Assembly (NCBI GenBank): GCA_965207755.1
Contig: OZ242297.1
Coordinates: forward strand, 199,406 to 263,405
Length of the DNA: 64,000 nucleotides
Origin: Acidimicrobiales bacterium
GTDB taxonomy: Bacteria > Actinomycetota > Acidimicrobiia > Acidimicrobiales > Aldehydirespiratoraceae
Direction of reading: 5' to 3'
Made by a program: the position numbers and the translations under genes. Position 1 is the stretch's first letter. Each line of letters opens with the position of its first letter. A model generated the notes under the pieces. It was not told the DNA's origin. It worked only from the letters and a program-made list of their open reading frames with translations, and made no database searches. Positions 2,517 through 60,040 of this stretch are shown piece after piece.

Positions 2517-4097
2517 TCAGAGTTGAGGCTCGCCGTTGAGGCGCCGGGCCAGTGACAGGGGGTTGGCGTCGCGGACTGCGTCCGGGAGCAGGTCGGACGG
2601 GAAGTTCTGGTAGCAGACCGGGCGCTGGAACCGCCGGATGGCCAGCGTGCCCACCGACGTCGAGCGGGGATCGGAGGTGGCCGGGAACGGGCCGCCATGC
2701 ACCATGGCGTGGTTGACCTCCACCCCGGTCGGCCAGCCGTTGGCGATCAGCCGGCCCGCCTTGCGCTCCAGCACCGGCACCAACTCGGCCGCGGCCGCAT
2801 GATCCGACTCGGCCATGTGAATCGAGGCCGCGAGCTGGCCCGGCAGCGCCTCCAGCAACGCCCGCAGCTCGTCCATCGACTCGTAGATGGCCACCAGCCC
2901 GGCCGAGCCGAACACCTCCTCCTGGAGGTCGGGCGACTCCAGCACCTCGGCCGCGGTGGCGGTGAACAGCACCGGCGCGGGCGCGTTGGCCGAATCCCCG
3001 GCACTCCCCGTACACACCCGGTTCGCACCGGCCGCCTCAAGCCGGGCCAGCCCCTCGTGGTAAGACTCGCGGATCCCGGCGGTCAGCATCACCTGGCCGG
3101 TCTGGGAGGCCACCGCCGCGGCGATGGCCTCTACCAGCCCGCTGGCCGGCGCCGGCACGAACAGCAGCCCCGGGTTGGTGCAGAACTGGCCCGCGCCCAG
3201 CGTCAGCGACCCCGCATAGGCGGACGCGAACGCCTCCAGGTCACCAGTCGCAGCCCCGGCCAGCACCACCTGAGGGTTGATGCTCGACATCTCGGCGTAC
3301 ACCGGGATCGGCTCGGGCCGGGCCGCCGCGGTGGCCATCAGCGCGGTGCCGCCCGCCTGCGACCCCGTGAAGGCCACGGCCTTGATCGCCGGATGGGCGG
3401 CCAGGGCCTGGCCCACCACCCGGCCCGCCCCGAACAGCAGCGAGTACACCCCGCCGGGCAGCCCGCAGGCCTCCACCGCAGCCGCCACCGCCGATCCGGC
3501 CAACTCGGCCGTCCCCGGATGGGCGTTGTGGGCTTTGACGATCACCGGGCAGCCGGCGGCCAGCGCCGAGGCCACGTCGCCGCCGGCAGCCGAGAACGCC
3601 AGCGGGAAGTTGCTGGGCCCGAACACCGCCACCGGGCCCACCCCGATGTGGCGCTGGCGCACATCCGGCGCTGGCAGCGGCGCCCGGTCGGGCTGGGCCG
3701 CGTCGATGCGCACCCCCTGGTGGGAGCCGAGCCGCACCTCCCGGGCGAACAGCCGGATCTGGCCGGTGGTACGACCGTGCTCGCCCTCGATCCTGGCCCG
3801 GGGCAGCCCGCTCTCGAGGCAGGCCCGGTCCACGAGGGCCTCCCGCCGGTCGTCGAGCTCGGCCGCGATCCGCTCCAAGAACCCGGCCCGCTCAGCCGGC
3901 GAGGTCTCCCGGAACACGTCGAAGGCCACCCCGGCCGCGGCCGCCGCCGCGTCCACAGCCGCCTCGGTCACGAACGAGAACTCCGGGTCCAGCTCAGCCC
4001 CCGAAGCCGGATCCACCGCCCGAACCGACTCGCCCGAACCAGCGCCGTCCCACCCGGCGATGATCGAGCGCCCCGTCGGCTCTGCCTGTGCCGTCAT
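2517..4097 (-). CDS. NAD(P)-dependent aldehyde dehydrogenase, alpha-ketoglutarate semialdehyde dehydrogenase-like
   Basis: 526 aa with ALDH family motifs (FTGSxxGG, EEVFGS, catalytic QFCTNPG). The length and N-terminus resemble the KGSADH subgroup. Confidence 0.85.
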   Translation of the reverse strand: MTAQAEPTGRSIIAGWDGAGSGESVRAVDPASGAELDPEFSFVTEAAVDAAAAAAGVAFDVFRETSPAERAGFLERIAAELDDRREALVDRACLESGLPRARIEGEHGRTTGQIRLFAREVRLGSHQGVRIDAAQPDRAPLPAPDVRQRHIGVGPVAVFGPSNFPLAFSAAGGDVASALAAGCPVIVKAHNAHPGTAELAGSAVAAAVEACGLPGGVYSLLFGAGRVVGQALAAHPAIKAVAFTGSQAGGTALMATAAARPEPIPVYAEMSSINPQVVLAGAATGDLEAFASAYAGSLTLGAGQFCTNPGLLFVPAPASGLVEAIAAAVASQTGQVMLTAGIRESYHEGLARLEAAGANRVCTGSAGDSANAPAPVLFTATAAEVLESPDLQEEVFGSAGLVAIYESMDELRALLEALPGQLAASIHMAESDHAAAAELVPVLERKAGRLIANGWPTGVEVNHAMVHGGPFPATSDPRSTSVGTLAIRRFQRPVCYQNFPSDLLPDAVRDANPLSLARRLNGEPQL

Positions 4098-4138
4098 GGC
4101 CGCCCTGTCAGGCCGTGCCGTTCTGCCTGTGCCGTCAT
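4094..4138 (-). other. 14-codon mini-ORF made by duplication of the ALDH start; its TGA overlaps the ALDH ATG (ATGA)
   Basis: GCCATGACGGCACAGGCAGA occurs twice (4081-4100 and 4122-4141). The upstream copy reads MTAQAERHGLTGRP*; the true gene starts MTAQAEPTGRS. Confidence 0.6.
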
Positions 4139-4245
4139 GGCTGTCTTGCCATGCTCAACGGGCACCTCCTCCCCGCCCCGGACCTCCAGTCCCGGAGCAC
4201 GGCACAGGTATAGCGACGGGCTATGACAGAGCCGCGACACAGCTC

Positions 4246-5160
4246 TCACGCAACCATGCTCGCCCGGTGCTCGCTGACCGCGGTTTCCCACTGCGGCCAC
4301 GTCGGCCTTGCCTTCTCGGGCAGCACCGCGAAGGGCACGTCACCAGCCGCGCGACACCCGTTCTCGATGAACTCCGCCTGCGCTCGTACCGGGTCGTCCA
4401 GACCGGCGCTGGACGGGGTCGGCATGAAGCGGAAGTCGACGCTCCAGCGGCACTCCCGAGTCCGGTTCTGCTTGCTGCCGTGGACGGTGAGATTGGTGAA
4501 GAACAACGCCCCGCCCACCTTCACCGGTACCGGCACCGGCGTGGCCCGGGCCTCGATGTCCTCGCCGATCCGGACATTGCGGTCCTCGCCCCGCATCGCA
4601 TCCAGCAGACCCCAGCGGTGGCTGCCCGGGATCACCCAGCAGCAGCCGTTCTCGACCGTGGCCGGCACAAGCGGCACCCACACCGACACCATGTGCAGGT
4701 CCCCGGTGTGCTTCTCCATCCGCCCCACCTCGGTCTGGTCGAAGTAGTGGCTGTCCTGGTGCCAGGGGAACGACGTGACCTCGCTGCCCGGAAGCTTCTG
4801 GCGCAGCGACGGGCTCGCGATCACCGAGACCTCCTCACCCAGCAGCAGGCCCACGACCCGCAGGATCCCCGAATGGGTGTACAGCCCGTAGAACTCGGGC
4901 CCGAAGAGCCCGAGACCCCAGTCCCGCGGCGAGATGCCCTGCTCCTCGCAGATGGCCGCGTACCGGCGCTCGAACGGCTCGCCGGCATGCAGCGACGCCA
5001 ACTCGCCCCGGGCGTGCTGCTCGGACGCGTACCGATCGATCGCCGCCGCGATGAAGCCCCGCATCGGATCCAAGTCCCGGTCCTCGACGACGTCATCAAC
5101 CACCACATAGCCGTCGCGCTGGTAGTGCTCGACGATCTCGGTGTCGCTCATTTGCGCCAT
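4246..5160 (-). CDS. Phytanoyl-CoA dioxygenase (PhyH) family Fe(II)/2OG oxygenase
   Basis: 304 aa with N-terminal YQRDGYVVV, WHQDSHYF (HxD) and distal His (TVHGSKQNRT). Confidence 0.85.
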   Translation of the reverse strand: MAQMSDTEIVEHYQRDGYVVVDDVVEDRDLDPMRGFIAAAIDRYASEQHARGELASLHAGEPFERRYAAICEEQGISPRDWGLGLFGPEFYGLYTHSGILRVVGLLLGEEVSVIASPSLRQKLPGSEVTSFPWHQDSHYFDQTEVGRMEKHTGDLHMVSVWVPLVPATVENGCCWVIPGSHRWGLLDAMRGEDRNVRIGEDIEARATPVPVPVKVGGALFFTNLTVHGSKQNRTRECRWSVDFRFMPTPSSAGLDDPVRAQAEFIENGCRAAGDVPFAVLPEKARPTWPQWETAVSEHRASMVA

Positions 5161-5219
5161 GCGCCACCTCCGTGGGTCGTCGCCCCGCTGAGGCCACCCG
5201 GTTTGGACAGCCCTTCAGT

Positions 5220-7709: not shown

Positions 7710-7820
7710 ACGACGGGTCATGTGCCGCGGGTAGAACCCGCCAGATGAGCCGCATGAGTAGAGGCCGAGCGGGTAGGCGGCACCAATGCAAGAGACCTGC
7801 GAGGCGCTGAGCGAGGCCGT

Positions 7821-7859
7821 GGCCCGAGCGGCCCGTGAGCGCAGCGAACAAGAGCGGGA
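7821..7859 (+). repeat. Repeat family 2 (GAGCGGCCCGTGAGCGCAGCGAACAnGAGCGGG), single copy
   Basis: Same 33-38-mer as at 56851-57027 (x4), 59801-59836 and 63028-63066 (inverted). Confidence 0.8.
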
Positions 7860-7920
7860 GACACCACGCCGGACCGCGAGGCACTATTCCCGCTCGCGCT
7901 CGCATGAGTAGCCTCGGCTA

Positions 7921-8910: not shown

Positions 8911-9851
8911 TGGCCGAGCCCGCCGACGCCGGTGTGGCTGAGACCCCTGCAGCCGACACTCAGGTGGCCGGCAGTCAGGTGGCCGGCGGGCCGGTGGCCG
9001 GGCCCGGCCGCCTCCGGAGGCTGGCGCGTCTCACCCGCGAGCGCCCCGTGTTCGTGGTGCTCCTGGGTGTGCTGGCCCTGCACTTCTTCACCGCCATCAC
9101 CGGACCGTGGTGGGCGCCGTACACCCACGACACGATGCTGGTCGGCGAACCGTTCACCGGCCCGTCGTGGGACCATCCCTTCGGCACCGACAACTTCGGG
9201 CGGGACGTGTTCAGCCGGGTGGTCCGGGGCGAGCGGATCGTGCTCATCCAGGCGCTGTCGGCATCGGGACTGGCCATCATCTCCGGCTCCACCATCGGCA
9301 TCCTGCTGGCCTACAAGCGGGGCTGGGTCGACGAGGTCGGCATGCGGGGCGTCGACATCATGCTGGCCCTGCCGGGACTCATCATGACCCTGCTCATCCT
9401 GGGCTCGATCGAGACCAACAACCTAGTGATCATCCTGACCGTCGCCTTCTTCTTCACATGGCCGGTCACCCTCACCGTCCGGGCCGCGGCCCTGGGGGTG
9501 GTCACCGAGGACTTCGTGACCAAGGCCAAGCTGAGAGGGGAGTCGGCGTTGTCGATCGCCCGGCGAGAGATCCTGCCCAACGTGCTGGGCAACGTGCTGG
9601 TGGAGTTCTCGCTGCGCACCGGGTACGCGGTGTTCTTCATCGGGGCGCTCAGCTTCCTGGGCTTCGCGGCCGCGCCGCCGTCGCCCGAGTGGGGGCTGAT
9701 GATCAATGAGGGCCGCAAGTTCCTCAGCGCCTCCAAGTGGATGGTGCTGGGCCCCGCCGGGGCGCTGGCCTCGCTGGTGGTGGCGCTGAGCCTTGTCACC
9801 GAGGAGGTCGCCGACATCCTCGGCGTGTCCACCCGCCGGAGCTCGGGCTGA
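8910..9851 (+). CDS. ABC transporter permease (DppC/OppC-like)
   Basis: ATG overlaps the upstream stop (ATGA). Contains the HPFGTDNFGRDVFSRV motif typical of DppC-type permeases. Confidence 0.9.
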   Translation: MAEPADAGVAETPAADTQVAGSQVAGGPVAGPGRLRRLARLTRERPVFVVLLGVLALHFFTAITGPWWAPYTHDTMLVGEPFTGPSWDHPFGTDNFGRDVFSRVVRGERIVLIQALSASGLAIISGSTIGILLAYKRGWVDEVGMRGVDIMLALPGLIMTLLILGSIETNNLVIILTVAFFFTWPVTLTVRAAALGVVTEDFVTKAKLRGESALSIARREILPNVLGNVLVEFSLRTGYAVFFIGALSFLGFAAAPPSPEWGLMINEGRKFLSASKWMVLGPAGALASLVVALSLVTEEVADILGVSTRRSSG

Positions 9852-9955
9852 TGGCCGCGATTCCTGCCGCTGGCGCGATGATCTCGGCGGTCGCCAGCGA
9901 TGGCTGGAGGCTCGATGGTCTCGGCGGTCGCCGGCGATGGCTGGAGGCGCGATGA
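9851..9955 (+). other. 34-codon junction mini-ORF built from a 37-bp x3 repeat of the ATPase start region
   Basis: Its ATG shares one base with the permease TGA (TGATG). Its TGA overlaps the ATG at 9952 (ATGA). ATGATCTCGGCGGTCGCC, ATGGTCTCGGCGGTCGCC and ATGACCTCGGCGGCT sit at 9878, 9915 and 9952. Confidence 0.55.
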
Positions 9956-10989
9956 CCTCGGCGGCTACGAGTGGTGCAGCCACCGCCAGCCCCTCCGCGA
10001 ACGGCGGCGAGCCGCTGGTGCGGGTCGACGACCTCACCGTCGACTACCGCAACGACGACCAGTGGGTGAGCGTGGTCAAGGACGTGTCGTTCTCCATCGG
10101 CCGGGGCGAGACGCTGGGCCTGGCCGGCGAGTCCGGCTGCGGCAAGACCACCACCGCGCTGGCCATGTTCGGCTACAACAAGCCCGGCAGCCGGGTGGCC
10201 GGCGGCCGGGTCACCTTCGACGGCCGCGACCTGCTGGACCTGTCCGTCCGCCAGATGCAGCCCATCCGGGGCGCTCGGATCTCGCTGGTGCCCCAGAACC
10301 CGGCCAGCACCCTCACCCCGTCGATGAAGGTCGGCCGCCAGGTGGTCGAGACGCTGGAGGGCCACGGCGTGAGCTCCGGCGGCGACGCCATGGACCGCAC
10401 GGTCGAGCTGTTCGGCCAAGTCGGGCTGCCCGAGCCGGCCAAGATCGCCCGCCGCTACCCGCACCAGCTCAGCGGCGGCCAGCAGCAGCGAGTGGTGATC
10501 GCCATCGCCATCGCCTGCCGTCCGGACCTGATCGTGCTGGACGAGCCCACCACCGCCCTCGACGTCACCACCCAGGCCCGGCTGCTCGACCTGCTCACCC
10601 ACATCAAGGACGAGAGCGGCATGAGCGCCCTGTACGTCAGCCACAACCTGGGGGTGCTGGAGCAGATCTGCGACCGGGTGGCGGTGATGTACGCCGGCGA
10701 GCTCATCGAGATCGCGCCCACCGCCGAACTGTTCAACCGGCCCCGCCACCCCTACACCCGGGGCCTGATCGCGGCCGTGCCCCGGGTGGAGGCCGAGCAC
10801 GCCGGCACCGAGAAGCTGCGGGGCCTGCTGCGCCGCGACGACCTGCCCGACGGATGCGGCTTCGCCCCCCGGTGCCCCTACTCGCGGCCGCAGTGCTTCA
10901 CCGACCCGCAGCGGCTGGCCGAGATCGAGCCGTCGCACCACGTGGCCTGCTGGCGGGCCCCGGACATCGAAGCCGAGGCAACGCCATGA
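9952..10989 (+). CDS. ABC transporter ATP-binding protein (DppD/OppD-like)
   Basis: Walker [10 protein letters not shown], signature LSGGQQQR and an oligopeptide-type C-terminal domain. An in-frame ATG at 9937 is an alternative start. Confidence 0.9.
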
Positions 10990-11077: not shown

Positions 11078-12133
11078 ATGACCCCGCTGCTGGAAGTCTC
11101 CGACGTCCGGATCTCGTACCGGCCCCGCCGCGGGCTGGTGTCCAGACTGGTCCGGGCCCTGCGGTCCGACACCACCGAGCCGGTGCCGGCGGTGCGGGAC
11201 GCGTCGTTCACCATCAACACGGGCGAGACGGTGGCCCTGGTGGGCGAGAGCGGCAGCGGCAAGACCACCCTGGCCCGCTCCATCGCCGGGCTGATCCAGC
11301 CCCAGCGGGGGAGCCTGCGCTTCGAGGGCGCCGACATCACCCGGCCCGTGTACCGCCGGCCGCCGGAGCTGCTGCGCCACATCCAGTACGTGTTCCAGAA
11401 CCCGGCTTCGTCGCTGAACCCCCGCCGCAAGGTCCGCTACAGCCTGGGCCGCACGCTCGACGTGTTCTTCAAGCTGTCCAAGGCCGAGAGGCGCGACCGG
11501 ATGGCCGGGCTGCTGGCCAGCGTCCACCTCGACCCCGGCTACATCGACCGCTACCCGCCCCAGCTCAGCGGGGGCGAGGCCCAGCGGGTGGCCATCGCCC
11601 AGGCCCTGGCCGCCGAGCCCAAGCTGATCCTGTGCGACGAGGTCCTGTCGGCCCTCGACGTGTCGGTGCAGGACAACATCCTCGAGCTGCTGCGGGAGCT
11701 GCAGGCCGCCCGGGACGTGGCCTACCTGTTCATCGCCCACGACCTGGCCGTGGTGCGGTGGCTGGCAGACCGGGTGGTGGTGCTGTACCACGGCCGCATC
11801 GTCGAGCAGGGCACCGTCGAGGAGATCTTCACCCCGCCCCACCATCCCTACACCGCGCTTCTGCTCGACTCGATCCCCGGCAAGGGCGAGCACCAGACCT
11901 CCGCGCTGACCGAGGACGCCTCCACGGTAGGCACCGCCCCCGATGCCGGCTGCGCCTTCGAGCCCCGCTGCCAGCACCGGATCGCCGGGGTGTGCGAGGT
12001 CGAAGAACCGCCCCGCCTCCAAGACAGCCCGACCCACGACGTGCTCTGCCACCTGAGCGCCGACGACCGAGCCCGAGTACAGGTCCGTTCCGCCGCCGCT
12101 GTCGTGGCCGGCGCGCCGTCCGAGGAGATCTGA
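11078..12133 (+). CDS. ABC transporter ATP-binding protein (DppF/OppF-like)
   Basis: Walker A GESGSGKTT, signature LSGGEAQR, Walker B LILCDE. Start is taken at MTPLLEVSDV. Confidence 0.9.
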   Translation: MTPLLEVSDVRISYRPRRGLVSRLVRALRSDTTEPVPAVRDASFTINTGETVALVGESGSGKTTLARSIAGLIQPQRGSLRFEGADITRPVYRRPPELLRHIQYVFQNPASSLNPRRKVRYSLGRTLDVFFKLSKAERRDRMAGLLASVHLDPGYIDRYPPQLSGGEAQRVAIAQALAAEPKLILCDEVLSALDVSVQDNILELLRELQAARDVAYLFIAHDLAVVRWLADRVVVLYHGRIVEQGTVEEIFTPPHHPYTALLLDSIPGKGEHQTSALTEDASTVGTAPDAGCAFEPRCQHRIAGVCEVEEPPRLQDSPTHDVLCHLSADDRARVQVRSAAAVVAGAPSEEI

Positions 12134-12261
12134 TGGCCGACACCGCGGAATCCCAAGCCGTCCGAGGAAATCTGATGGCCGACACCGCGGAATCCCAAGC
12201 CGTCCGAGGAGATCGGATGACTTGCGCCGTGGAGTTCCAGCCGCCTAAGGAGACGAGATGA
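12133..12261 (+). other. 42-codon junction mini-ORF (42-bp x2 repeat) linking the ATPase stop to the DapA-family start
   Basis: TGATG overlap at 12131-12135 and ATGA overlap at 12258-12261. The repeat unit MADTAESQAVRGNL mimics the downstream N-terminus MTDTAQL. Confidence 0.55.
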
Positions 12262-14495: not shown

Positions 14496-14918
14496 ATGAC
14501 TGTACTTTCAATATGTTTCAAGCGTCCGGGTGTCTTGGAGCGGCTCAGGCGGGGCGCGGCCCAGCGGGCTGAGTCGCTCTCATCGGCGGGGGAGCGCCTG
14601 ATCGACGAGGGGCTGCGCATGGACGCCTATCCCGGGATCGTCTTCCGCGATGGGCCCGCGGGCCGGCGGGCCGCGCTGGACACCGGGCCCGATGTGTGGC
14701 AGGTCGTCCCGCTGCTGCAGGGCTTGAGCGGAAGCCTGGAGGAGCGGATCGCGGAAACGGCTGAGCAGCTCTGGCTCACCGAGAGGCAGGTCCGAGCCGT
14801 CAGCCGGTACTACGCCGAGTTCACCGCCGAGATCGACGCCATGATCGCAGAGAACGAAGAGATTGCCGACCGCGAGTTGGCCGCCTGGGAGAACGAGCGC
14901 AAGCTGCTGACGGGGTGA
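14496..14918 (+). CDS. Putative antitoxin-like protein (DUF433-like)
   Basis: 140 aa. GIVFRDGPAGRRAALDTGPDVWQVV plus LTERQVRAVSRYY resemble DUF433. GTGA overlap with the downstream DUF5615-like gene. The 5' end is locally AT-richer. Start is uncertain (14472 or 14496). Confidence 0.45.
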   Translation: MTVLSICFKRPGVLERLRRGAAQRAESLSSAGERLIDEGLRMDAYPGIVFRDGPAGRRAALDTGPDVWQVVPLLQGLSGSLEERIAETAEQLWLTERQVRAVSRYYAEFTAEIDAMIAENEEIADRELAAWENERKLLTG

Positions 14919-15301: not shown

Positions 15302-16426
15302 CTAATCCCTCAGGCCGGAGAGCTCCATGACCGTGTTGTCTTCGATCCAGTTCCAGTCGAGCTCTACCCCTAGGCCGGGACCGGTGGGCAGGTGCAGGCA
15401 GCCGTCGGCGTCGATGTCCAGGGGGGCGCCCTTGAGGGCGAAGCGGAACATCTCATGGTGCAGTTCGAAGAACTCGCAGTTGCGTACCGAGCAGGCCACG
15501 TGCAGGTTGGCGATGTCGAGCAGCGATGAGTGCAGGGCGTGGATCTCGAGGTTCATGCCGGCCTCGTCGCACATGGCCGACGCCTTGCGCAGACCGGTGA
15601 TGCCGGCCTTGATGAACACGTCGCCCCGGGCCATGTCGCAGGCTCTGCGCTCCAGGAACTGGGGCAGCTCCCGGAGGCTGACCGTCTCGGTGGCCAGGAT
15701 GGGGACCTCCAGCCGCCGGGTGAGCTGCTCCAGGGTGGCGATGTCGCGGTCGGGGACGGGCTCCTCGAACCAGCGGTAGCCGAGACGGGCCAGCGCCTCG
15801 CCCACCTCCAGAGCCTGCTCGAAGCTGTACTCGGCCACCGCGTCCAGCATCAGCGGGAAGTCGTCGCCTGCGGCGTCACGGGCGGCCTCGGCCCGACCGA
15901 TGTCGGCGGCCGGGCCGTCGTACAGGGTCAGCTTGTAGCCCCGGTAGCCGAGCTGCTTCATGGCGGCCGCCTCGTCGAACGTGTCGGCGGGGGTGAGGTT
16001 CCAGTGCGAGCCGGTCCGGTAGGCGGGCACCTCGGTGCGGCACACCCCGAGCAGCTCGGCGATGGGCACTCCGGCGGCCTTGCCCTTGATGTCCCAGAAG
16101 GCCACGTCGAGCATGCCCAGCAGGCCGTCGCTGATGGGGTAGAGGTGGCGGTTGAGGCTCATGAGTTCCCGCCACAGTTCCTCGTGTTGCCGGGGGTCCT
16201 TGCCCAGGATGGCCCTCAGGTACACGTCGTGGAGCTGGTGGGCCGAGCCGATCCCCTCGCCGTTGGCGCCGTAGCCCATCGTGTACCCGTCGACACCCTC
16301 GTCGGTAGTCACGCACGTCAACGGGAAGTGCCAGACCGGCGGCACGTCGTCGGGTATAGGGCTGTCGCCGTACCAAGGCTGCGCGTCCAGCGCCAGCACC
16401 CGGGTCACCATCCCGGTGATCCTCAC
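15302..16426 (-). CDS. Enolase superfamily enzyme (mandelate racemase/muconate lactonizing family; acid-sugar dehydratase-like)
   Basis: 374 aa with DVAFWDIKGK, metal ligand contexts MLDAV/FEEP and a C-terminal barrel pattern. Confidence 0.9.
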   Translation of the reverse strand: MRITGMVTRVLALDAQPWYGDSPIPDDVPPVWHFPLTCVTTDEGVDGYTMGYGANGEGIGSAHQLHDVYLRAILGKDPRQHEELWRELMSLNRHLYPISDGLLGMLDVAFWDIKGKAAGVPIAELLGVCRTEVPAYRTGSHWNLTPADTFDEAAAMKQLGYRGYKLTLYDGPAADIGRAEAARDAAGDDFPLMLDAVAEYSFEQALEVGEALARLGYRWFEEPVPDRDIATLEQLTRRLEVPILATETVSLRELPQFLERRACDMARGDVFIKAGITGLRKASAMCDEAGMNLEIHALHSSLLDIANLHVACSVRNCEFFELHHEMFRFALKGAPLDIDADGCLHLPTGPGLGVELDWNWIEDNTVMELSGLRD

Positions 16427-17612: not shown

Positions 17613-17651
17613 GGGACGTCAAGCGAGACCGTGGCCGGTGCGGCCCCGGAT

Positions 17652-17766
17652 TCTCGGGTTGGTTGTGTGTGGCAGGCCCGCAGAACTCGCCCGAGATTCT
17701 GCGCCCGGCCCGTTCCCGGATTCTCGGGTTGGTTGTGTGTGGCAGGTCCGCAGAACGCTCCCGAGA
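17652..17766. repeat. Hairpin repeat family 1, 2 copies plus a partial third, period 70
   Basis: TCTCGGGTTGGTTGTGTGTGGCAGG.CCGCAGAAC..CCCGAGA at 17652-17696 and 17722-17766. A partial left arm sits at 17792. Confidence 0.85.
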
Positions 17767-44686: not shown

Positions 44687-46950
44687 CTAGCCGGTGAAGG
44701 TGACGTCTCCCTGCGCCGCGCGGTTGGCCAGACCCGTGCTCCGGACGAGGACGAGACCGAGCTGGTCCTCGCCGCCGATGGTGACGGTGACGGTGGCGGT
44801 GGTCTGCTCGCCTGACAGGTCGACGAACCTGTTCAGGCCGATGCCGCCGTCGCGGACGGCGGTCACCAGGATTGTCGGTCTGCTGTCGGGGATGCAGCTG
44901 AGGCTGACCTCGAAGTCGACCGCCGTGTCGCTGCGGCTGGCCTCGGGGCTGCTGATCGTCAGCGTCGGACGGCCGGTGCAGGCAACCAGTGCCTGCTAGT
45001 CGTCGTCGGGCGGTGGCGGGTCGTCGGGCGGTGGCGGGTCGTCGTTGTCGGTGACTGCGGCGGTGTCGGCGCCGCTGCCGGTGTAGCCGTCGCCGCTGTT
45101 GATCGTCGCTGTGACTGAGCCGTCGGCTTCGTCGTCGGAGTCGTCGGCGGTGGCGACGGTGAGGGTGGCGCTGCCCGATGTGGGGATGGTGACGGTGCGC
45201 GTGCCGGTGCCGGCGCCGTAGTCGCCGCTTGCGGACACTGTGACGGTGACGTCGAGGTCGGCCGCCGGCGCCGGGCTGGCGCTCAGCGTGAAGGTGGGGC
45301 TGCCGCCCTCGGTGACGCCGTTGCCGGCGGCGATGCTGATTGCCGGAACCTCCACGGGAGCGTCGCTGTCGGTGACGGTGGCGGTCAGAGACGACGGCGC
45401 GCCCAGCGTGTAGCCGCTGCCGGCATCGAGTGTGAGGGTGATCGATGCGTCGGCGAAGGTGGGCAGGGCGATGCGCCGGGCCCGGAAGCTGTCGGCATCG
45501 AGTGTGAGGGTGATCGATGCGTCGGCGAAGGCGGGCAGGGCGATGCGCCGGGCCCGGAAGCTGTCGGCATCGAGTGTGGCGGTGACCGATCCGTCCGGCT
45601 CGCCGGTGCTGTCGTCACTCGTGGCGACCGTCAGCGTGGCGCTGGTCGCGCCCGCATTGATCGTCACCCGCCGTGGACCCGCCTGCCCGACAGCAGCGAA
45701 ATCACCGCTGTCGATAACAGTTACATCGACAGCCAGCGCAGCCGAACCCGCCGAGTTCGAGGACTACGGCAGCAGCGAGCAGGTCTTCACGTCACATCGA
45801 CAGCCAGCGCAGCCGAACCCGCCGAGCCCCGGCTCACCGTGAACGTCGCCGCGGCACCCTCAGTCACATCGGCACCCACGGCGATGGAGACCTCTGGGAG
45901 GTCGCCGTCGTTGTCGGCGATGGAGACAGTCGCTCGATCCGGTGTGCCGACCGAGCACTACAAGTCATAGCCCAAGTCCCAATACGGCAGCAGTTCCAAG
46001 GTGACCGATCCGCCGGCCTCGACACTCCCGTCGTCGAGGGTCCCGACGGAGAACGCATACTCCAACTCGCGTTCGCCGGGGATGAACGTGGCCGCGCGCG
46101 CGGAATCGTCGGCAAAGTCGCCGTCGAACGACCACCGGACCCTGACGGGAAGGACACCGCCGAAGCTCCTGATCGGCGGCCGGTCGAAGGTGATCGTGAA
46201 GCTGGCATCCTCGCCTTCCACGATGGTGTCGCCCGACGCGCCGACCGACACCGTCCCCACAGCGTTGCCGCCGGAGGTGTCGTCGTCCATGACGACCACC
46301 ACGTCGGCCCGCTCGTGCTCGACATGGCGTAGCCGCTGCCCGTCTGAAGCGTCGCCGTCAGCTCGAGGTCGACCCCCCAGTCGTCGTCGGTCGTGACGAT
46401 GGTGAGCTTCGCGCTGCCGGTGGCGGGAATGGTGACGGTCCGCGCACCGGCCGTGATCCCCTGATTCGCCTGGTGCAGGGGATATTGCGTCCAGAGCGAG
46501 GACATCACGCCGACCGGCGGCGGGGCCGTCGGGGCGCGGGTTCGCCACCAGCGTGAAGGACGCCGCGTCACCCTCGATCACGTTGCCGTCAGCGACGATC
46601 CTGACCGTCGGCGGAGGGCGGTCGCCGTCTGCGGGCCGCACCGCCGGCTGGGCGTCGTCGTCGATGGTGACGATGATCGCGCTGGGATCGGCGACATCGC
46701 CTCCGGCGGCCGCGGCCGCGGTCCTGAACTCCTTGAGCGGCTCGTCGACTTCGTTCTGGGAAGCGATGAACGCCACAGGATCGGTGCTCGCGGTGGCGCC
46801 CGCCGCGACGGTGAGCCTGGTCCATGCGCTCATCGAGCCTTCGGCAGGCACCGCGGCGGCGACAGCGGCAGCGCTGACGTCGACGATGACATCCTGCGAC
46901 GACGATGGCTGAGGCTCGCGCCCCCCAGGGTGCGTAGGGAGGGCTACCAA
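44687..46950 (-). pseudogene. Decayed large Calx-beta/cadherin-like repeat protein gene (frameshifts, in-frame stops, internal duplications)
   Basis: Repeated ..ATVSIADND.., ..TLTVATSDDS.., ..DGSVTATL.. modules are spread over at least 3 frames. In-frame TAG stops at 44996 and 45958. 72-bp x2.3 tandem insert at 45422-45590. Confidence 0.6.
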
Positions 46951-49137: not shown

Positions 49138-49206
49138 ACCTCCACTCCTTGCGGGCCGTTCACGCTAACGCCACTCGCACTCCTGCAGCCCGGCGTCCGC
49201 ACAGAT

Positions 49207-49323
49207 TCTCGGTGCGATTTCTGGGCGTATACGACACACAACCGACCCGAGATTGTGGGGCCGGCCGCGCCGCGGATTCTCGGTGCGATTTCTGGGCGTA
49301 TACGACACACAACCGACCCGAGA
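49207..49323. repeat. Hairpin repeat family 1 variant, 2 tandem copies, period 71
   Basis: TCTCGGTGCGATTTCTGGGCGTATACGACACACAACCGACCCGAGA at 49207-49252 and 49278-49323, between divergent genes. Confidence 0.85.
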
Positions 49324-49374
49324 TTGTGGGGCCGGCCGTACTGTCGTGCTGGCCGGCCGCGTAGGATCGACGGG

Positions 49375-51072: not shown

Positions 51073-51097
51073 CCCGACCGCCGCGCCACCGCCGCCG

Positions 51098-51450
51098 TCT
51101 CGGAATTGGCAGCGTTTTGCGCGGTATGCGTGCATTGTGCTGCCAGTTCGCGGCAAGGTCCGGCCGCTGTCTCGGAATTGGCAGCGTTTTGCGCGGTATG
51201 CGTGCATTGTGCTGCCAGTTCGCGGCAAGGTCTGGCCGCTGTCTCGGAATTGGCAGCGTTTTGCGCGGTATGCGTGCATTGTGCTGCCAGTTCGCGGCAA
51301 GGTCTGGCCGCTGTCTGGGAATTGGCAGCGTTTTGCGCGGTATGCGTGCATTGTGCTGCCAGTTCGCGGCAAGGTCTGGCCGCTGTCTCGGAATTGGCAG
51401 CGTTTTGCGCGGTATGCGTGCATTGTGCTGCCAGTTCGCGGCAAGGCTGC
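51098..51450. repeat. 72-bp tandem array, 4.9 copies, each with a 10-bp-stem hairpin
   Basis: Copies start at 51098, 51170, 51242, 51314 and 51386. Unit is TCTCGGAATTGGCAGCGTTTTGCGCGGTATGCGTGCATTGTGCTGCCAGTTCGCGGCAAGGTCTGGCCGCTG. Arms AATTGGCAGC/GCTGCCAGTT. Confidence 0.9.
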
Positions 51451-51487
51451 CGCTGGCCTAGCCGGCCCGCGGGGGTAGGGTCGGGGC

Positions 51488-54743: not shown

Positions 54744-56828
54744 ATGACCCGCGTCGGGGGATGGGTCGAGCCGCTCACGGACTACTTCAGCCGGGAGATC
54801 TCGTGGCTGGCCTTCAACGCCCGCGTCCTCGCCCTCGCCGACGACGCCGACGTCCCCCTGCTCGAGCAGGCCAGGTACCTCAGCATCTTCGCCACCAACC
54901 TCGACGAGTTCTTCCAGGTCCGGGTGTCGGGCCTCGCCGGCCGGGTCGCGGCCGAACTCACCGAGCGCACCCTCGACGGGCACACCCCCGGCGAGCAGCT
55001 CCGCGAGGTCCGCCGTATCGCCGCCGAGCTGTGCGCCGAGCAGCAGCGCCTCTTCATCGAGGAGGTCAGGCCGGCCCTGGCCGCCGAGGGCATACACCTC
55101 CTCACCCCCGACGAGATCAGCCCCGCCGAGCGCGCCCGCCTCCGCGACCACTTCGAGCAGCGGGTCTTCCCGGTGCTCACCCCGCTGGCCGTCGATCCCG
55201 GGCACCCGTTCCCGTTCATCTCGGACCTCTCGCTGAGCCTGGCCGTCCTGATGCGCGACCCGGTCGACTCCGAGCAGCGCTTCGCCCGGGTCAAGGTCCC
55301 CGACACCCTCGACCGCTGGGTGGAGACCGGCGAGGGCGCCTGCCGGTTCGTGGCGCTCGAGGACGTGATCGCGGCCCATCTCGACATGCTCTTCCCCGGC
55401 ATGGAGGTGCTGGAGCACCACAGCTTCCGGGTCACCCGCAACGCCGACCTCACCCTCAACGACGAGGACGCCGACGACCTGCTGATCGCGGTGCAGATGG
55501 AGCTCCGCCGGCGACGCTTCCAGTGGGCCGTCCGCCTCGAGGTGGCCGACACCATGTCGGACGAGGTGCTCGACCTGCTGCTGCGCGAGCTCAACCTGCG
55601 CGCGGACGCCCTGGTCCGGGTGCGGGGCCCCATCGATCTGAGCGGCCTCAACGAGATCGCGGGCCTGCCCCGGCCCGAGCTGACATGGCCCCACTGGCGC
55701 GGCATCACCGAGCCGGAGCTGCTGACCGAGGACGGCCCGGCCGACTTCTTCAAGGTGCTGCGCTCCGGCGACCTGCTCGTGCACCATCCGTACTCGTCGT
55801 TCAGCCGCTCGGTTGGCGCGCTCATCCACCAGGCCGCCAGGGATCCGGCCGTGCTGGCCATCAAGCTCACGCTGTACCGCACCTCCGGCGACAGCCCCAT
55901 CATCGACGCGCTGGTGGCCGCGGCCGAGAGGGGCAAGCAGGTGGCGGTGCTGGTGGAGCTGAAGGCCCGCTTCGACGAGGCCCAGAACATCGGCTGGGCC
56001 AAGCGGCTGGAGCAGGCCGGCGCCCACGTGGCCTACGGCCTGGTCGGCCTGAAGATCCACGCCAAGATCGCCATGATCGTGCGGGAGGAGCCCGACGGCA
56101 TCCGCCGCTACTGCCACATCGGCACCGGCAACTACAACCACCGCACCGCCCGCATCTACGAGGACTTCGGCCTGCTCACCGCCGATCCGGGGGTCGGAGC
56201 GGACATCGCCGGCCTGTTCAACCAGCTCACCGGCTACGGCCGCAACGTCGACCACAAGCACCTGATCACCGCGCCCGAGCTGCTCCGCCCCCGCCTGACC
56301 GAGCTGGTCGAGCAGGAGATGCACGTGCCCGGCGGCCGCATCATCATGAAGCTCAACGCGCTGGCCGACGGGCCGATGATCGACCAGCTCTACAAGGCGT
56401 CGCAGGCCGGCGTGGAGATCGACCTGATCGTGCGGGGCCTGTGCGGTCTGCGGCCCGGCGTCGAGGGGCTGTCGGAGACGATACGGGTGCGCTCGATAGT
56501 GGGCCGGTTCTTGGAGCACTCGCGCATCTACCATTTCGCCAACGGCGACGGACCGGGCCGTCCCGCCACCTACATCGGCTCCGCGGACCTGCTGAGCCGC
56601 AACCTCGACCGGAGGGTGGAGGCTCTCGTGCGGGTGGACGACCCGGGGCTGGCGGCCCGGGTGGCCGAGGTGGCCGAGGTGAGCCTGTCCGACGAGCACC
56701 TGGCCTGGACGCTGGACTCCGAAGGCGTCTGGACCCGCCACGACCGCGGCGCCGACACCGACACCCACGTCAGGCTCCAGCAGCTGGCCCTGAACCGGGC
56801 CCGTCCCGCCGAGCGCGTCCTACCCTGA
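54744..56828 (+). CDS. ppk: Polyphosphate kinase 1
   Basis: FSREISWLAFNARVL, FATNLDEFFQVR, the HAK autophosphorylation His context (LKIHAKIAMI) and tandem PLD-like C-terminal domains. 694 aa. Confidence 0.95.
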   Translation: MTRVGGWVEPLTDYFSREISWLAFNARVLALADDADVPLLEQARYLSIFATNLDEFFQVRVSGLAGRVAAELTERTLDGHTPGEQLREVRRIAAELCAEQQRLFIEEVRPALAAEGIHLLTPDEISPAERARLRDHFEQRVFPVLTPLAVDPGHPFPFISDLSLSLAVLMRDPVDSEQRFARVKVPDTLDRWVETGEGACRFVALEDVIAAHLDMLFPGMEVLEHHSFRVTRNADLTLNDEDADDLLIAVQMELRRRRFQWAVRLEVADTMSDEVLDLLLRELNLRADALVRVRGPIDLSGLNEIAGLPRPELTWPHWRGITEPELLTEDGPADFFKVLRSGDLLVHHPYSSFSRSVGALIHQAARDPAVLAIKLTLYRTSGDSPIIDALVAAAERGKQVAVLVELKARFDEAQNIGWAKRLEQAGAHVAYGLVGLKIHAKIAMIVREEPDGIRRYCHIGTGNYNHRTARIYEDFGLLTADPGVGADIAGLFNQLTGYGRNVDHKHLITAPELLRPRLTELVEQEMHVPGGRIIMKLNALADGPMIDQLYKASQAGVEIDLIVRGLCGLRPGVEGLSETIRVRSIVGRFLEHSRIYHFANGDGPGRPATYIGSADLLSRNLDRRVEALVRVDDPGLAARVAEVAEVSLSDEHLAWTLDSEGVWTRHDRGADTDTHVRLQQLALNRARPAERVLP

Positions 56829-56850
56829 CCAGAGGCCGAGCCTGCGAGGC

Positions 56851-57027
56851 CCCTGGGCCCGAGCGGCCCGTGAGCGCAGCGAACAGGAGCGGGCTCCTGG
56901 GCTCGAGCGGCCCGTGAGCGCAGCGAACAGGAGCGGGCTCCTGGGCTCGAGCGGCCCGTGAGCGCAGCGAACAGGAGCGGGCCCCTGGGCCCGAGCGGCC
57001 CGTGAGCGCAGCGAACAGGAGCGGGCG
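56851..57027 (+). repeat. Repeat family 2, 4 tandem copies, period 44
   Basis: GAGCGGCCCGTGAGCGCAGCGAACAGGAGCGGG starts at 56861, 56905, 56949 and 56993. The array is flanked by direct repeats GCGTCCTACCCTGA(C/G)CAG at 56815-56832 and 57062-57079. Confidence 0.9.
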
Positions 57028-57079
57028 ATAACGCCGCGGCACCGCGACCGGCGTCCTATTCGCGTCCTACCCTGAGCAG

Positions 57080-58387
57080 GTGGGCCAGGACCGGGTGAGC
57101 GATCAGGGCGAGCCGGGCCGGCCCGTTCCCGCGTACAGCCCGTTCCAGCGCCTGGCCCGCGTCCACGCCGCGGCCACCGCCACCGACGCGGTGATCGCGG
57201 TGGCCCTGGCCGGGTCGATCTTCTTCTCGATCAGCCCCGACGCGGCCCGCGACCGCATCGCCCTGTACCTGGCCCTCACCATGGCGCCGTTCGCGGTGGT
57301 CACACCGCTGATCGGTCCGGTCATCGACCGGATGCCGGGCGGGCGCCGGGCCATGATCCTCACCACCAACCTGGGCCGTCTGGTGGTGGCCCTGCTCATG
57401 ATCCGCCACCTCGACACCCTGTGGCTGTTCCCCGAGGCCTTCGCGCTGCTGGTGCTCCAGAAGTCCTACGCAGTGGCCAAGAGCGCGGTGGTGCCCCGCT
57501 ACGTGCCCACCGAATCCAACCTGGTGCAGGCCAACAGCCGGCTGGCCCTCATCAGCGCGGTGATGAGTCTGGTGGGGGCGGGCACAGGCGCGGCCCTGGC
57601 CTTCCTGGGGAGCCCGGCCGTGGCCGCCGGCGCGGCCACCGTCGGCTACCTGGTGGCGACCGCGATCACGCTGCAGCTGCCCCGCATCCCGGTGGCCCGG
57701 ACCAGGACGACCTCCACCGAGCGCTCCGCCCTGCGGGCGGCCACCATCCTGCTGTCGGCGTCGGCCATGGCGGTGATCCGGGGCGCGGTGGGGTTCGTCA
57801 CCTTCACGCTGGCCTTCGCGCTGCGCGGCGGCGAGGAGGGGCTGGATGTGAGCGCGCCGGGCGCGGCGGCCGGCGGGGCGGTGGCATCCGAGCGCGGCGT
57901 CGACATCGTCGGCGATCCGGGCGCCCCATTCTGGCACTACGCGGTGGTGGTGGCCGTGGCCGGACTGGCCGCCTTCACGGGAGTGCAGGTCGCTCCCGTC
58001 CTGAGGCGCCGCCTGGTGGAGGAGATGATCCTGCTCGGATCGCTGGCCGTGGCCCTGTCCACCGCGTTGCTGGCCGTCATGACCGGCGGGCTGATGGGCA
58101 TGGCGCTGCTGTCGGGCGGTGTGGCCGTCTCGGCCGCGGCGGGCAAGCTCGCCTTCGACTCGCTGGTGCAGCGCGACGCGCCCGACGCCAACCACGGACG
58201 GTCGTTCTCCCGCTTCGAGGCCCGCTTCCAGATCGCCTGGGTGGTCGGCGCCTTCGTCCCGGTGGTCCTGCCCGTCCCGGCCCGGCTGGGATCCGGCATG
58301 GTGGCCGTGGTGGCCGCCGCCGCGCTGGTCTTCTTCGTAGTCAGCCGGCGCCGCCCCTCCATGCCGGGACCCCGGGGACTCGAGTAG
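57080..58387 (+). CDS. MFS transporter
   Basis: 435 aa, about 12 TM, with the loop motif GPVIDRMPGGRR. Confidence 0.8.
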   Translation: MGQDRVSDQGEPGRPVPAYSPFQRLARVHAAATATDAVIAVALAGSIFFSISPDAARDRIALYLALTMAPFAVVTPLIGPVIDRMPGGRRAMILTTNLGRLVVALLMIRHLDTLWLFPEAFALLVLQKSYAVAKSAVVPRYVPTESNLVQANSRLALISAVMSLVGAGTGAALAFLGSPAVAAGAATVGYLVATAITLQLPRIPVARTRTTSTERSALRAATILLSASAMAVIRGAVGFVTFTLAFALRGGEEGLDVSAPGAAAGGAVASERGVDIVGDPGAPFWHYAVVVAVAGLAAFTGVQVAPVLRRRLVEEMILLGSLAVALSTALLAVMTGGLMGMALLSGGVAVSAAAGKLAFDSLVQRDAPDANHGRSFSRFEARFQIAWVVGAFVPVVLPVPARLGSGMVAVVAAAALVFFVVSRRRPSMPGPRGLE

Positions 58388-59674
58388 CTAGCGGGGCAGG
58401 TCGATCCGGGCCAGCCACAGGCCGGCCGCGTCGACCTCGGCCGGGGTGGGCAGGTTGTCCGGATGGGTGAAGAGCCGACGCAGCCCGTCGGTTCCGGCCC
58501 GCTCCACCACCCCCGCGGCGAAGGCCGCCCCCCGTTCGTACTGGGTCTGGTCCAGCTCCAGGCCGAGGAGCCGCGCCACGAACCGGTCGGACGCGCCCGC
58601 CTCGACACGATGGCGCCGCAACGCCTCGGACAGGCGGTCGTACGAACCGATCAGGTCGGCGCCGATGCGGTCCATGGTGAAATCGACGTACCCGGTGATG
58701 GCCGCCACCAGAGCGGTCAACTGCGGCAGGAGCGCATCCTGGGCCGGCGACCTTACCGCTCCCAGCAGGACGTCGGGGCTGCCCAGCTCCGACTGGAGCC
58801 GCGCGAACGCATCAGGGCCGAGAGAGCCGGGGTCGAAGTCGCCCAGCAGCTCCTCGATGCGCCGGGGGTTGGTCTCGAAGGCGGAGGCATGGCGCAGCAG
58901 CAGGTCGCTGACCGCGCCGCGCACATGGTCCACCCCGAACACCGCGCAGCAGGCGGCCTCATGCACGCACACCCACAGGCGGACGTCGTCGGCGTCGAGC
59001 GACCACTCCCGGCTGAACTCGTCGACGTTGGGCAGGGCGACGAGCATCGGCTTGCCGGCGGGGCGGGGCACCGGCAGCACGTAGCCGCCGAGGGCATGCT
59101 GCGCGAGGCGGCCCACCATGGCGCCGGTGGTGAGGGCCAGCATGGTGGGGCCGATCATCTTGGAGATGCCGGCCAGCATGGCCGCCATCGGGTCGCCGGG
59201 CGTGTCGTCGGGGTCCGGCTCAAGGCTCGCCGAGATCGACTTGTGGAGCGCGCCGAACAGGGCCTCGTAGTCGCTGACGGTGCGGTCCGACCACCCGGCG
59301 CGGTTCACCACCTCCACCCGCAGCGCCGCCCCCGGGGCCGGCTGCAGGCCGGTCGCGTCTGCCACCCGCAGCTCGGCCACCCGGACGAGCTGTTCGATGG
59401 CGATGCGCTGGGACGGGTCGATGTTGGGCTCCGAGACCCCGCCGCTGGCGATGGCCCGCCCCACCTCGCGGGCCTGGCCGGCACCGGGCGCGGCCGACTG
59501 CAGCGTCCGCATCAGGTTGCCGAGCAGCGGAACGTCCCCCAGCCCGCCGAAGCCGTCCGGCTCATCAGTCTCGCCGCTCTCGCCCAGATCGCCGAGCCCC
59601 TCCAGACCCTCCAGACCCTCCAGGCCCTCGAAGGGATCTTCGGGCCCGCCCTCTGTTGGCGGATCGCCGCTCAT
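58388..59674 (-). CDS. DUF2342 family zincin-like protein with degenerate HExxH (HEAAC)
   Basis: 428 aa from MSGDPPTEGG. Family-like body, with LWVCVHEAACCAVF where HExxH is expected. N-terminal GLEGLEGLEGLGDLG repeat. Confidence 0.7.
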   Translation of the reverse strand: MSGDPPTEGGPEDPFEGLEGLEGLEGLGDLGESGETDEPDGFGGLGDVPLLGNLMRTLQSAAPGAGQAREVGRAIASGGVSEPNIDPSQRIAIEQLVRVAELRVADATGLQPAPGAALRVEVVNRAGWSDRTVSDYEALFGALHKSISASLEPDPDDTPGDPMAAMLAGISKMIGPTMLALTTGAMVGRLAQHALGGYVLPVPRPAGKPMLVALPNVDEFSREWSLDADDVRLWVCVHEAACCAVFGVDHVRGAVSDLLLRHASAFETNPRRIEELLGDFDPGSLGPDAFARLQSELGSPDVLLGAVRSPAQDALLPQLTALVAAITGYVDFTMDRIGADLIGSYDRLSEALRRHRVEAGASDRFVARLLGLELDQTQYERGAAFAAGVVERAGTDGLRRLFTHPDNLPTPAEVDAAGLWLARIDLPR

Positions 59675-59800
59675 GAGGGCATCGTAGAGGGGTGAGGCCC
59701 CGATTGTCCTGCCCGCCGCCGCCCGCCGGCCCGCCGGGCGGGGAGCGCCCAGAGGCCGGCACACCCGCCGGGCGGATCCTGCCGACACGGGCGAGGCCTT

Positions 59801-59836
59801 GGCCCGAGCGGCCCGTTGGCGCAGCGAACAGGCGCC
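59801..59836 (+). repeat. Repeat family 2, single diverged copy
   Basis: GGCCCGAGCGGCCCGTTGGCGCAGCGAACAGGCGCC in the divergent intergenic region. Confidence 0.7.
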
Positions 59837-59888
59837 GGAGACGCAACGCGGCGGCGAGGTCGGTCGTCGCCGCGCACGGTGCGGTTCG

Positions 59889-60040
59889 ATGAGGCGGGTG
59901 GTGGTGACCGGTTGTCGCGGCGTGGTGGCGATGTCGGTCGTCGCCGCGCACGGTCCGGTTCGATGAGGCGGGTGGTGGTGGCCGGTTGTCGCGGCGTGGT
60001 GGCGAGGTCGGTCGTCGCCGCGCACGGTGCGGTTCGATGA
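59889..60040 (+). other. Two 25-codon mini-ORFs from a 74-bp x3 duplication of the epimerase start, chained by ATGA overlaps
   Basis: ATGAGGCGGGTGGTGGTG(A/G)CCGG at 59889, 59963 and 60037. Each upstream copy reads MRRVVV(T/A)GCRGVVA..AAHG.VR* and ends on the next ATG. Confidence 0.65.

Follow-up and report, generated by a model that had tools for sequence, protein, structure and literature searches.

Probable MIRU-like minisatellites derived from local gene-junction sequence in a repeat-prone clade of Acidimicrobiia

A 64,000-nt stretch of the genome of an Acidimicrobiales bacterium of the Aldehydirespiratoraceae (assembly GCA_965207755.1, contig OZ242297.1, positions 199,406 to 263,405; this whole stretch is hereafter called the window) carries tandem copies of the translation-start region at nine gene starts. 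These arrays are probably locus-specific minisatellites, resembling variable-number tandem repeats (VNTRs), that arose by tandem duplication of segments spanning a translation start and often a stop/start overlap. Their units are made of the downstream gene's first codons together with the upstream gene's last codons, including the Shine-Dalgarno sequence, and the extra start codons (decoys) open short open reading frames (mini-ORFs) that form a relay of overlapping stops and starts. In this the arrays are like the mycobacterial interspersed repetitive units (MIRUs), with the difference that they derive from local junction sequence, in a clade of Acidimicrobiia that is prone to tandem repetition.

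G+C content is about 70% throughout the window, and the GC signal at third codon positions is strong, so that reading frames can be assigned readily; the window belongs to a high-GC Acidimicrobiia genome of the sponge-symbiont type; the genus 'Candidatus Aldehydirespirator' is named in the literature on sponge-associated Actinobacteriota. Genes were called from a codon log-odds model, and each start codon and its ORF were traced through every site. Rfam and tRNA scans of the window gave no match.

Start-region arrays in the window

An earlier note on this DNA had reported tandem copies of the translation-start region at nine sites, and Tandem Repeats Finder (TRF) and the raw sequence bear this out at all of them (Table 1): TRF recovers arrays at eight sites (at site 1 weakly), and the short duplication at site 6 is seen directly in the sequence. 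Site 6 has a period of 17 nt and the other eight sites have periods of 37-74 nt; copies within arrays match at 84-97%, and the genes that flank the arrays are functionally unrelated. At sites 1-4 and 6-9 every hop is a 4-nt (ATGA or GTGA) or 1-nt (TGATG) overlap of stop and start, in agreement with the claim that in most cases the TGA of a decoy ORF overlaps the start that follows; site 5 is the exception. The further claim, of an unbroken passage from gene stop through mini-ORFs to gene start with decoys beginning on the stop of the upstream gene, stands at the five junctions where a same-strand upstream stop leads to a downstream start (sites 2, 3, 4, 7 and 8) and does not extend to the other four (sites 1, 5, 6 and 9), where the array lies at a start without an attached upstream gene.

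At site 2 the stop of the ABC-permease gene (TGA 9849-9851) overlaps ATG 9851 (TGATG 9849-9853), from which a 34-aa mini-ORF extends to TGA 9953-9955, overlapping the downstream start ATG 9952; the two 37-nt steps add up to 74 nt, a spacing with a remainder of two on division by three (3n+2). The true gene frame is entered at ATG 9952, the high third-position-GC frame being that of 9790-10989, and not by the ORF from 9900, which has no Pfam match. At site 3 the ABC ATPase stop (TGA 12131-12133) overlaps ATG 12133 (TGATG 12131-12135), and a single 42-aa mini-ORF ends on TGA 12259-12261, overlapping ATG 12258 of the DHDPS-family gene, with AGGAG followed by (TG)ATG in each unit. The stop of the 2-hydroxyacid dehydrogenase gene at site 4 (16622-16620) overlaps ATG 16623 of a 66-aa mini-ORF, which ends on TGA 16425-16423, overlapping GTG 16426 of the enolase-superfamily gene; the last step, of 17 nt, sets the 3n+2 phase. 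Site 7 has two mini-ORFs, one of 29 aa from ATG 25742, which is overlapped by the upstream gene's stop (25741-25739), to the ATGA at 25656, and one of 20 aa whose TGA overlaps ATG 25597 of the succinate dehydrogenase/fumarate reductase flavoprotein gene. The mini-ORF at site 8, of 28 aa, starts at ATG 38696, in overlap with the stop (38697-38699) of a gene for a branched-chain amino-acid permease, and its TGA (38780-38782) overlaps ATG 38779 of the second permease gene; the permeases are of the Liv type.

At the remaining four sites no upstream gene is attached. At site 1 a 14-aa ORF from decoy ATG 4138 (MTAQAE...) ends on TGA 4096-4094, overlapping the real ATG 4097, and a 5-aa ORF from ATG 4152 ends on a TGA overlapping ATG 4138, in a chain without an attached upstream gene stop. 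Site 5 has an 80-aa ORF from ATG 19732, in the frame of the Na+/H+ exchanger gene, closed by TAG 19972-19974. At site 6 a GTGA at 22607 or 22603 opens a 6-aa ORF ending on a TGA that overlaps ATG 22590 or GTG 22586. Site 9 has two 25-aa mini-ORFs (ATG 59889 and ATG 59963), each ending on a TGA overlapping the next ATG, and the real epimerase start is ATG 60037. The mimicry of real N-termini by decoys that had been listed for these junctions (MTAQAE/MTAQAE, MADTAES/MTDTAQL, MNTGADL/MNTGGDLL, MRRVVVTG/MRRVVVTG and MNDAVL/MNDTVL) is correct.

A tenth relay was overlooked in the count of nine. Downstream of ppk (stop 56826-56828), 44-nt units at 56848-57026 form a GTGA chain (56870-57031) of three 15-aa GTGA-to-GTGA mini-ORFs and a fourth that ends on TAA 57029-57031, attached to neither ppk nor the major facilitator (MFS) gene. 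This 44-nt unit forms the core of an element that is dispersed, with further occurrences at 7821-7858, 59801-59832 and 63028-63064(-). That element, an intergenic sequence of about 110 nt (…GAGGCCGAGCGGGTAGGCG…GGCCCGAGCGGCCCGTGAGCGCAGCGAACAAGAGCGGG…), lies at 7750-7915, with partial copies at 59795-59840 and 63028-63064(-); it sits in different gene junctions in different genomes, including J3 of L001 and L007 (J numbers denote junctions and L numbers the loci of relatives), and its 44-nt core is amplified in L112 and L032 as it is in the window at 56848-57026. A 21-nt direct repeat (GCGTCCTACCCTGA(C/G)CAG) flanks the array at 56815-56835 and 57062-57082 and corresponds to the 3' end of ppk with its stop, so that the whole insert, of about 250 nt, has the look of a larger duplication across the junction.

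Table 1. Start-region arrays, the additional relay and the palindromic family in the window (coordinates in nt; TRF, array as reported by Tandem Repeats Finder, unit x copies)
Feature	Position	Strand	TRF array	Description
Site 1	4083-4158	-	4086-4144 (weak signal)	41-nt direct duplication at start of aldehyde-dehydrogenase gene (2517-4097)
Site 2	9849-9964	+	9872-9964 (37 nt x2.5)	Array after ABC-permease gene
Site 3	12115-12261	+	12115-12219 (42 nt x2.5)	Units spaced 42, 42 and 41 nt; ABC ATPase to DHDPS-family gene
Site 4	16423-16627	-	16455-16627 (45 nt x3.8)	2-hydroxyacid dehydrogenase to enolase-superfamily gene
Site 5	19732-20002	+	19753-20002 (51 nt x4.9)	Array copying start of Na+/H+ exchanger gene
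Site 6	22585-22607	-		17-nt duplication at start of VCA0040-like membrane protein gene
Site 7	25594-25742	-	25593-25729 (71 nt x2.1)	Steps of 86 nt (71 from ATG 25727) and 59 nt, all 3n+2
Site 8	38671-38787	+	38671-38787 (42 nt x2.8)	Units spaced 42 then 41 nt; 1-nt deletion in last copy
Site 9	59853-60059	+	59853-60059 (74 nt x2.8)	Start of NAD-dependent epimerase gene, divergent intergenic region
Additional relay	56848-57031	+		44-nt x4.1 array between ppk and MFS gene
Palindromic element, 70-72 nt	198-312, 17641-17798, 22627-22814, 26552-26686, 42851-42996, 49204-49338

The same junctions in related genomes

Relatives were found by scanning species-representative genomes with the 2-hydroxyacid dehydrogenase encoded at 16620-17612(-). 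The scan returned 20 syntenic loci (L001-L020), all from metagenome-assembled genomes of Acidimicrobiia, among them 'Acidimicrobiaceae bacterium SB0675_bin_16' (93% identity to the query) and several complete chromosomes with OZ accessions ('Candidatus Aldehydirespirator', Acidimicrobiales). A metagenome scan added only two close loci (L032 and L033), and its remaining, distant loci served as outgroup controls. The comparison of junctions took in 22 related genomes of Acidimicrobiia, several of which are complete chromosomes from long reads. A search for proteins identical to that of the window's DHDPS gene gave no match, and no second strain of the window's own species was found. Nucleotide identity between the window and its relatives is 85-95% within genes, and the alignments are interrupted exactly at the junctions named in the earlier note.

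The sequence between conserved anchors, extracted at six junctions in all relatives, ranges from a bare ATGA/GTGA overlap or a short spacer, which is the basal state, to about seven copies, and the units at one junction often differ between lineages. J3, between the ABC ATPase and DHDPS genes, is bare in L002, L006, L009 and L012 ('...AGGAGATCTCATGA', 4-nt overlap) and has a 41-nt repeat of two units in L004, L010 and L016, three in L014, four in L017 and L032, and five or six in L003, compared with 42+42+41 in the window; AGGAG and (TG)ATG are kept in all J3 units across eight genomes. J4 is a 16-nt bare GTGA junction in six genomes and has two to four 45-nt units in the window, L001 and L002, about three to seven 32-nt units in L005, L007, L013 and L015, a 29-nt duplication in L003, 14-nt repeats in L011 and 40-nt units in L032, that is, at least five different units (45, 40, 32, 29 and 14 nt). 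J2 and J7 behave in the same way, copy number differing between related species. Other junctions have arrays as well: in L015 (7740-7460) a sugar-kinase-like gene is preceded by eight 35-nt units, a VapB/VapC-like junction has five 35-nt units in L007 and L015, and in L008 spacer and start are duplicated (35 nt). The array of site 9 is absent from the three closest relatives examined, which have a single-copy epimerase start, and both it and the 44-nt array are absent from relatives whose ppk is 93-96% identical, where the spacer between ppk and the MFS gene is 18-27 nt. Because junctions are bare or differently repeated in relatives, and the site 9 and 44-nt arrays are missing there, the arrays are young and have arisen repeatedly and independently at the same junctions, with changing copy number.

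Two observations on these segments are recorded in their own right. J4 of L004 (10971-11114), L012 (11031-11247) and L017 (10932-11063) is occupied by an insert of about 130 nt that is not a tandem array and contains inverted repeats; L012 has two copies of it. The segment with the Na+/H+ exchanger gene and its 51-nt array (window 19000-21650) is absent from most syntenic relatives and kept only in L002, L032 and L033, where the array is minimal or absent.

Chance accounts poorly for the start-region copies. A 25-nt start context with an upstream copy (at least 75% identity, within 420 nt) was found for 27 of 377 genes (~7%), eight or nine of which are in the window (~15% of its gene starts), compared with 17 of 4770 internal in-frame start-like codons (0.36%). 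The suggestion that a common tendency to form tandem repeats lies behind the sites is borne out across the clade by array density. Per 100 kb, the window has 28 strong arrays (TRF score at least 150), the first set of relatives 12 and the second 8, versus 0.3 in distant loci of at least 65% GC (323 kb in total), so that the density of strong arrays in the clade is ~25-40 times that of high-GC outgroup loci; for arrays of all strengths the figures are 32-39 versus 5-8 in outgroups. Strong arrays are spread unevenly over the loci compared and are absent from L006, L010, L016, L019 and L020. From the high density it follows that this lineage is unusually prone to tandem duplication.

Arrays stand at orthologous junctions in assemblies that are independent of one another, whether short-read (NODE_... 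contigs) or complete long-read chromosomes (among them OZ220709.1 and OZ244872.1), and the copies in relatives differ by point substitutions; an assembly artefact is therefore very unlikely. Assemblers, moreover, tend towards collapsing repeats rather than creating them, as stated for the tandem repeats of Borgs (PMC9879509).

Reading-frame phase and the origin of the arrays

Across the window and the 20 syntenic loci (441 kb), 87 of 140 arrays (62%) fall in the 19% of sequence outside gene bodies. The period is divisible by three (3n) in 51 of the 53 arrays inside gene bodies, and 56 of the 58 arrays with other periods lie outside them. Spacings between consecutive repeated stop/start motifs outside gene bodies leave a remainder of two on division by three in 83 cases, zero in 20 and one in 9 (n = 112). 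Counted by roughly independent family, in a grouping that was partly manual, 3n+2 has about 22 members, 3n has 6 and 3n+1 has two or three (P ~1e-5 against a uniform null). The uniform null is the wrong choice here, because coding sequence is strongly periodic and the downstream frame is shifted by two at 4-nt and 1-nt overlaps. A microhomology null was built instead from exact 5-8-nt direct repeats between the last 90 nt of the upstream gene and the first 90 nt of the downstream gene. At 70 overlap junctions (window and L001-L020) such repeats are 3n+2-spaced in 54-63% (~56% expected), a built-in bias that stems from codon periodicity, so that duplication by microhomology alone would give mostly 3n+2 units.

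Some features of the arrays point beyond this bias. Where the upstream flank is non-coding, four of five arrays are 3n+2 (sites 1, 6, 9 and L008, not site 5), which is suggestive, five arrays being too few to decide. The phase is restored by 42+42+41 nt at site 3, by 42+41 nt at site 8 and by a 17-nt step after 45-nt units at site 4, and in the window, L003 and L017 alike the 37-nt unit makes two steps, neither more nor fewer, which add up to 74 nt. When decoys were compared with the real start without regard to the motif, conservation was highest in the Shine-Dalgarno stretch and at the T and G of the start codon (2-6% mismatches at T and G), although this test is confounded by the position of the array ends and the case is not rested on it. 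It was concluded that mutational bias and, probably, a purifying filter both contribute to the phasing.

The minisatellite reading would account for these patterns in five steps. A high rate of short tandem duplication and copy-number change, evident from the density and presumably due to slippage or microhomology, would come first. Duplications within genes would survive only if 3n, and those straddling a gene boundary at any length, which is the distribution found and which probably reflects tolerance: the first copy would keep the 3' end of the upstream gene and the last copy the ribosome-binding site and start of the downstream gene, and junction-spanning duplications would be tolerated because each gene thereby keeps one intact end. 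In a 3n+2 array the decoy would read the copied N-terminal codons of the downstream gene and then the C-terminal codons of the upstream gene, each in its own frame; such a decoy is thus open by construction and ends on the next overlapping TGA. The relay is then a direct consequence of the phase, since a 3n+2 unit over an ATGA or TGATG overlap necessarily yields a decoy that ends on the next overlap. The dominance of 3n+2 would derive partly from codon-periodic microhomology, for which the direct repeats give partial evidence, and probably also from counter-selection, as 3n+1 units would run out of frame across the real start and 3n units would add N-terminal extensions. Finally, ribosomes that finish the upstream gene would probably be passed by termination-reinitiation through the mini-ORFs to the real start, as the established behaviour of ATGA/TGATG overlaps suggests (PMC6728339, PMC10666635); translational coupling would persist, perhaps slightly weakened at each hop. 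A function of the mini-ORF peptides themselves appears unlikely, because the peptides are not conserved, and a reading of the mini-ORFs as conserved leader peptides was rejected since they are not conserved in relatives.

Several observations weigh against this reading. At the family level the 3n+2 share (~22 of 30, ~73%) is only marginally above 0.56 (P ~0.04) and not significantly above 0.63 (P 0.16), and these counts are to be read knowing that families were delimited partly by hand and that copies within one array are not independent. The J2 unit of 37 nt and the J4 unit of 40 nt in L032 are both 3n+1, and at site 5 the TAG lies 3 nt before the real ATG 19978, leaving no stop/start overlap. 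The A of the TGA in decoys has 24-25% mismatches and is no better kept than the flanks. Eight further loci around ppk (177 kb), which confirmed site 9 and the 44-nt array as particular to the window's lineage, gave no new start-duplication families; the distribution of junction arrays is thus uneven, with more of them in the window than in its relatives. Translation of the mini-ORFs, lastly, is an inference.

In one alternative the arrays are a purely mutational by-product, neutral and with the 3n+2 phase due wholly to codon-phased microhomology, and neither the relay nor translation of the mini-ORFs matters. The phase bias of the direct repeats, the family-level share that does not exceed it significantly, the free variation of units and copy number among relatives and the want of preferential conservation at the A of xTGA are all as such an origin would have it. 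It is nevertheless somewhat unlikely, given that 3n+2 also prevails in arrays that lack coding sequence upstream, that frame-restoring indels and copy numbers occur at sites 2, 3, 4 and 8, that the 3n+1 class is the rarest, and that decoys keep their start codon and the Shine-Dalgarno stretch better than other positions, although the geometry of that test is a confounder.

That the arrays are phase-selected working relays, in which copy number acts as a fast-mutating heritable dial on the protein ratio within operons, and that they represent the birth stage of MIRU-type elements, with the 44-nt GTGA unit already dispersed, seems to us unlikely. Less probable again is an adaptive translational rheostat, in which each hop lowers reinitiation and copy number tunes the ratio of downstream to upstream protein, as has been proposed for MIRUs, which were suggested to give differential translation within operons. 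The unbroken relay at five operon junctions, the differing copy number between species at the same junctions and the retention of AGGAG and (TG)ATG in the J3 units of eight genomes accord with a rheostat, but a bare overlap suffices in many relatives at those junctions, the affected genes have no common function, and the arrays are young and lineage-specific. The proposal that the relays are retained for coupling or attenuation is not established by the phasing, much of which mutational bias explains, the excess over the null being marginal at the family level.

It is very improbable that a dispersed mobile or MIRU/REP-like (repetitive extragenic palindromic) element aimed at gene junctions, instead of local duplication, produced the nine sites. 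The ~110-nt element with its amplified core, the 70-72-nt palindromic family and the ~130-nt J4 insert do occupy junctions, but none of the nine units resembles another or any other part of the window, and the units consist of the codons of the adjoining genes; this reading of the sites was rejected on the lack of unit similarity elsewhere in the window. Least credible of all is that the sites are assembly artefacts, or N-terminal protein repeats or alternative proteoforms in place of separate mini-ORFs, since, although protein repeats might in principle be encoded by the 3n arrays of sites 4 and 5 and some ppk homologues have longer N-termini, the arrays recur with point differences in independent short-read and long-read assemblies, assemblers tend to collapse repeats, and the protein-repeat reading was rejected because the decoy frame differs from the gene frame at eight of nine sites and the TAG intervenes at site 5.

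Other repeats, known systems and implications

Further repeats in the window are separate from the nine sites. The dispersed palindromic element (AATCTCGGG...loop...CCCGAGATT) occurs as two or three tandem copies in intergenic regions; its unit has a predicted hairpin of -29 kcal/mol (z = -2.4) and no Rfam match, and at the orthologous J6 in relatives it has zero to three copies with diverged loops. An array of 72-nt x5.1 (51091-51455) lies upstream of a VWA-domain gene, each unit having an in-frame ATG and a predicted hairpin of -38 kcal/mol (z = -4.3) on GAATTGGCAGC...GCTGCCAGTTC; a 111-aa repeat ORF ends at TAG 51459, 26 nt before ATG 51488, and at this position L114 has two copies of a related hairpin unit and L113 none. 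In-frame coding repeats within genes are found at 579-679 (39 nt), 42381-42570 (18-81), 45416-45595 (72) and 59598-59629 (9), and the N-terminal region of a zincin-like protein has a different 18-54-nt repeat in almost every relative (L112-L118, ~14600-14850).

The belief that no system with such an architecture had been described is not supported, since the MIRU minisatellites of M. tuberculosis lie between operon genes. MIRUs are 40-100-bp units at 41 loci, 12 of them polymorphic and most of them intergenic within operons, and have been proposed to cause differential translation within polycistronic operons (PMC2734929, PMC3635867); the senX3-regX3 MIRU has units of 77 and 53 bp, the number of which differs between strains (PMC4213456). 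Both of these lengths are 3n+2, as here, and the likeness extends to tandem units in the 40-100 bp range between co-directional operon genes (sites 2, 3, 4, 7 and 8). Copy number differs between strains in MIRUs; here it differs between related species at J2, J3, J4 and J7. Supply et al. reportedly described, in 1997, a small ORF in each MIRU that overlaps the stop and start of its neighbours. A trait of this kind is seen here at eight of nine sites. MIRUs are, however, one interspersed family at 41 loci, whereas here each unit is local and unrelated to the others, the arrays are far denser, different units appear repeatedly at the same junction and the host is an acidimicrobiian. Lacking the interspersed-family feature, the nine sites are classed as MIRU-like in architecture and not as MIRU members; the dispersed 44-nt unit comes closer to a true MIRU analogue. 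The literature searches found this exact architecture described only for MIRUs; they turned up no account, for Acidimicrobiia or any other group, of start-region minisatellites that are locally derived, recurrent and linked by a 3n+2 relay.

Borg tandem repeats are locus-unique, independent and fast-evolving, 3n in ORFs and mostly non-3n in intergenic regions (Schoelmerich et al. 2023, PMC9879509). They share with the present arrays a genome-specific burst, locus-unique units, the 3n rule in ORFs and, for some arrays, a start within gene ends, but they are perfect, A-rich and depleted in ATG and stops, with no stop/start relay described (PMC9879509), whereas the arrays here are imperfect, of ~70% GC, centred on start codons and located in a bacterial chromosome. 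ATGA and TGATG overlaps are a known substrate of termination-reinitiation coupling (PMC6728339, PMC10666635), and each hop here is such a canonical 4-nt or 1-nt overlap; the known cases join two real genes, whereas one to several non-conserved mini-ORFs intervene here. Like leader peptides and upstream ORFs, the mini-ORFs are short, lie just upstream of a gene and could influence its translation, but leaders are conserved and linked to sensing, whereas these are copies of neighbouring coding sequence and vary in relatives. REP elements and miniature inverted-repeat transposable elements (MITEs) have the same palindromic or terminal-repeat unit at many loci, a trait that the nine sites lack and the palindromic family of the window displays.

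Even if the arrays are neutral, they mark out a clade in which strong tandem arrays are ~25-40 times as frequent as in comparable high-GC genomes, and they illustrate that codon periodicity by itself tilts junction duplications to 3n+2. Decoy starts will mislead gene callers on N-termini, giving spurious small or extended ORFs. Should the phase rule be due to selection, the arrays would be natural evidence for termination-reinitiation chained through several mini-ORFs, and for translational coupling as a constraint on the evolution of operon junctions. They would in that event also offer a simple model for the origin of MIRU-like elements, and ready VNTR markers for those Acidimicrobiia of sponges that are uncultured.

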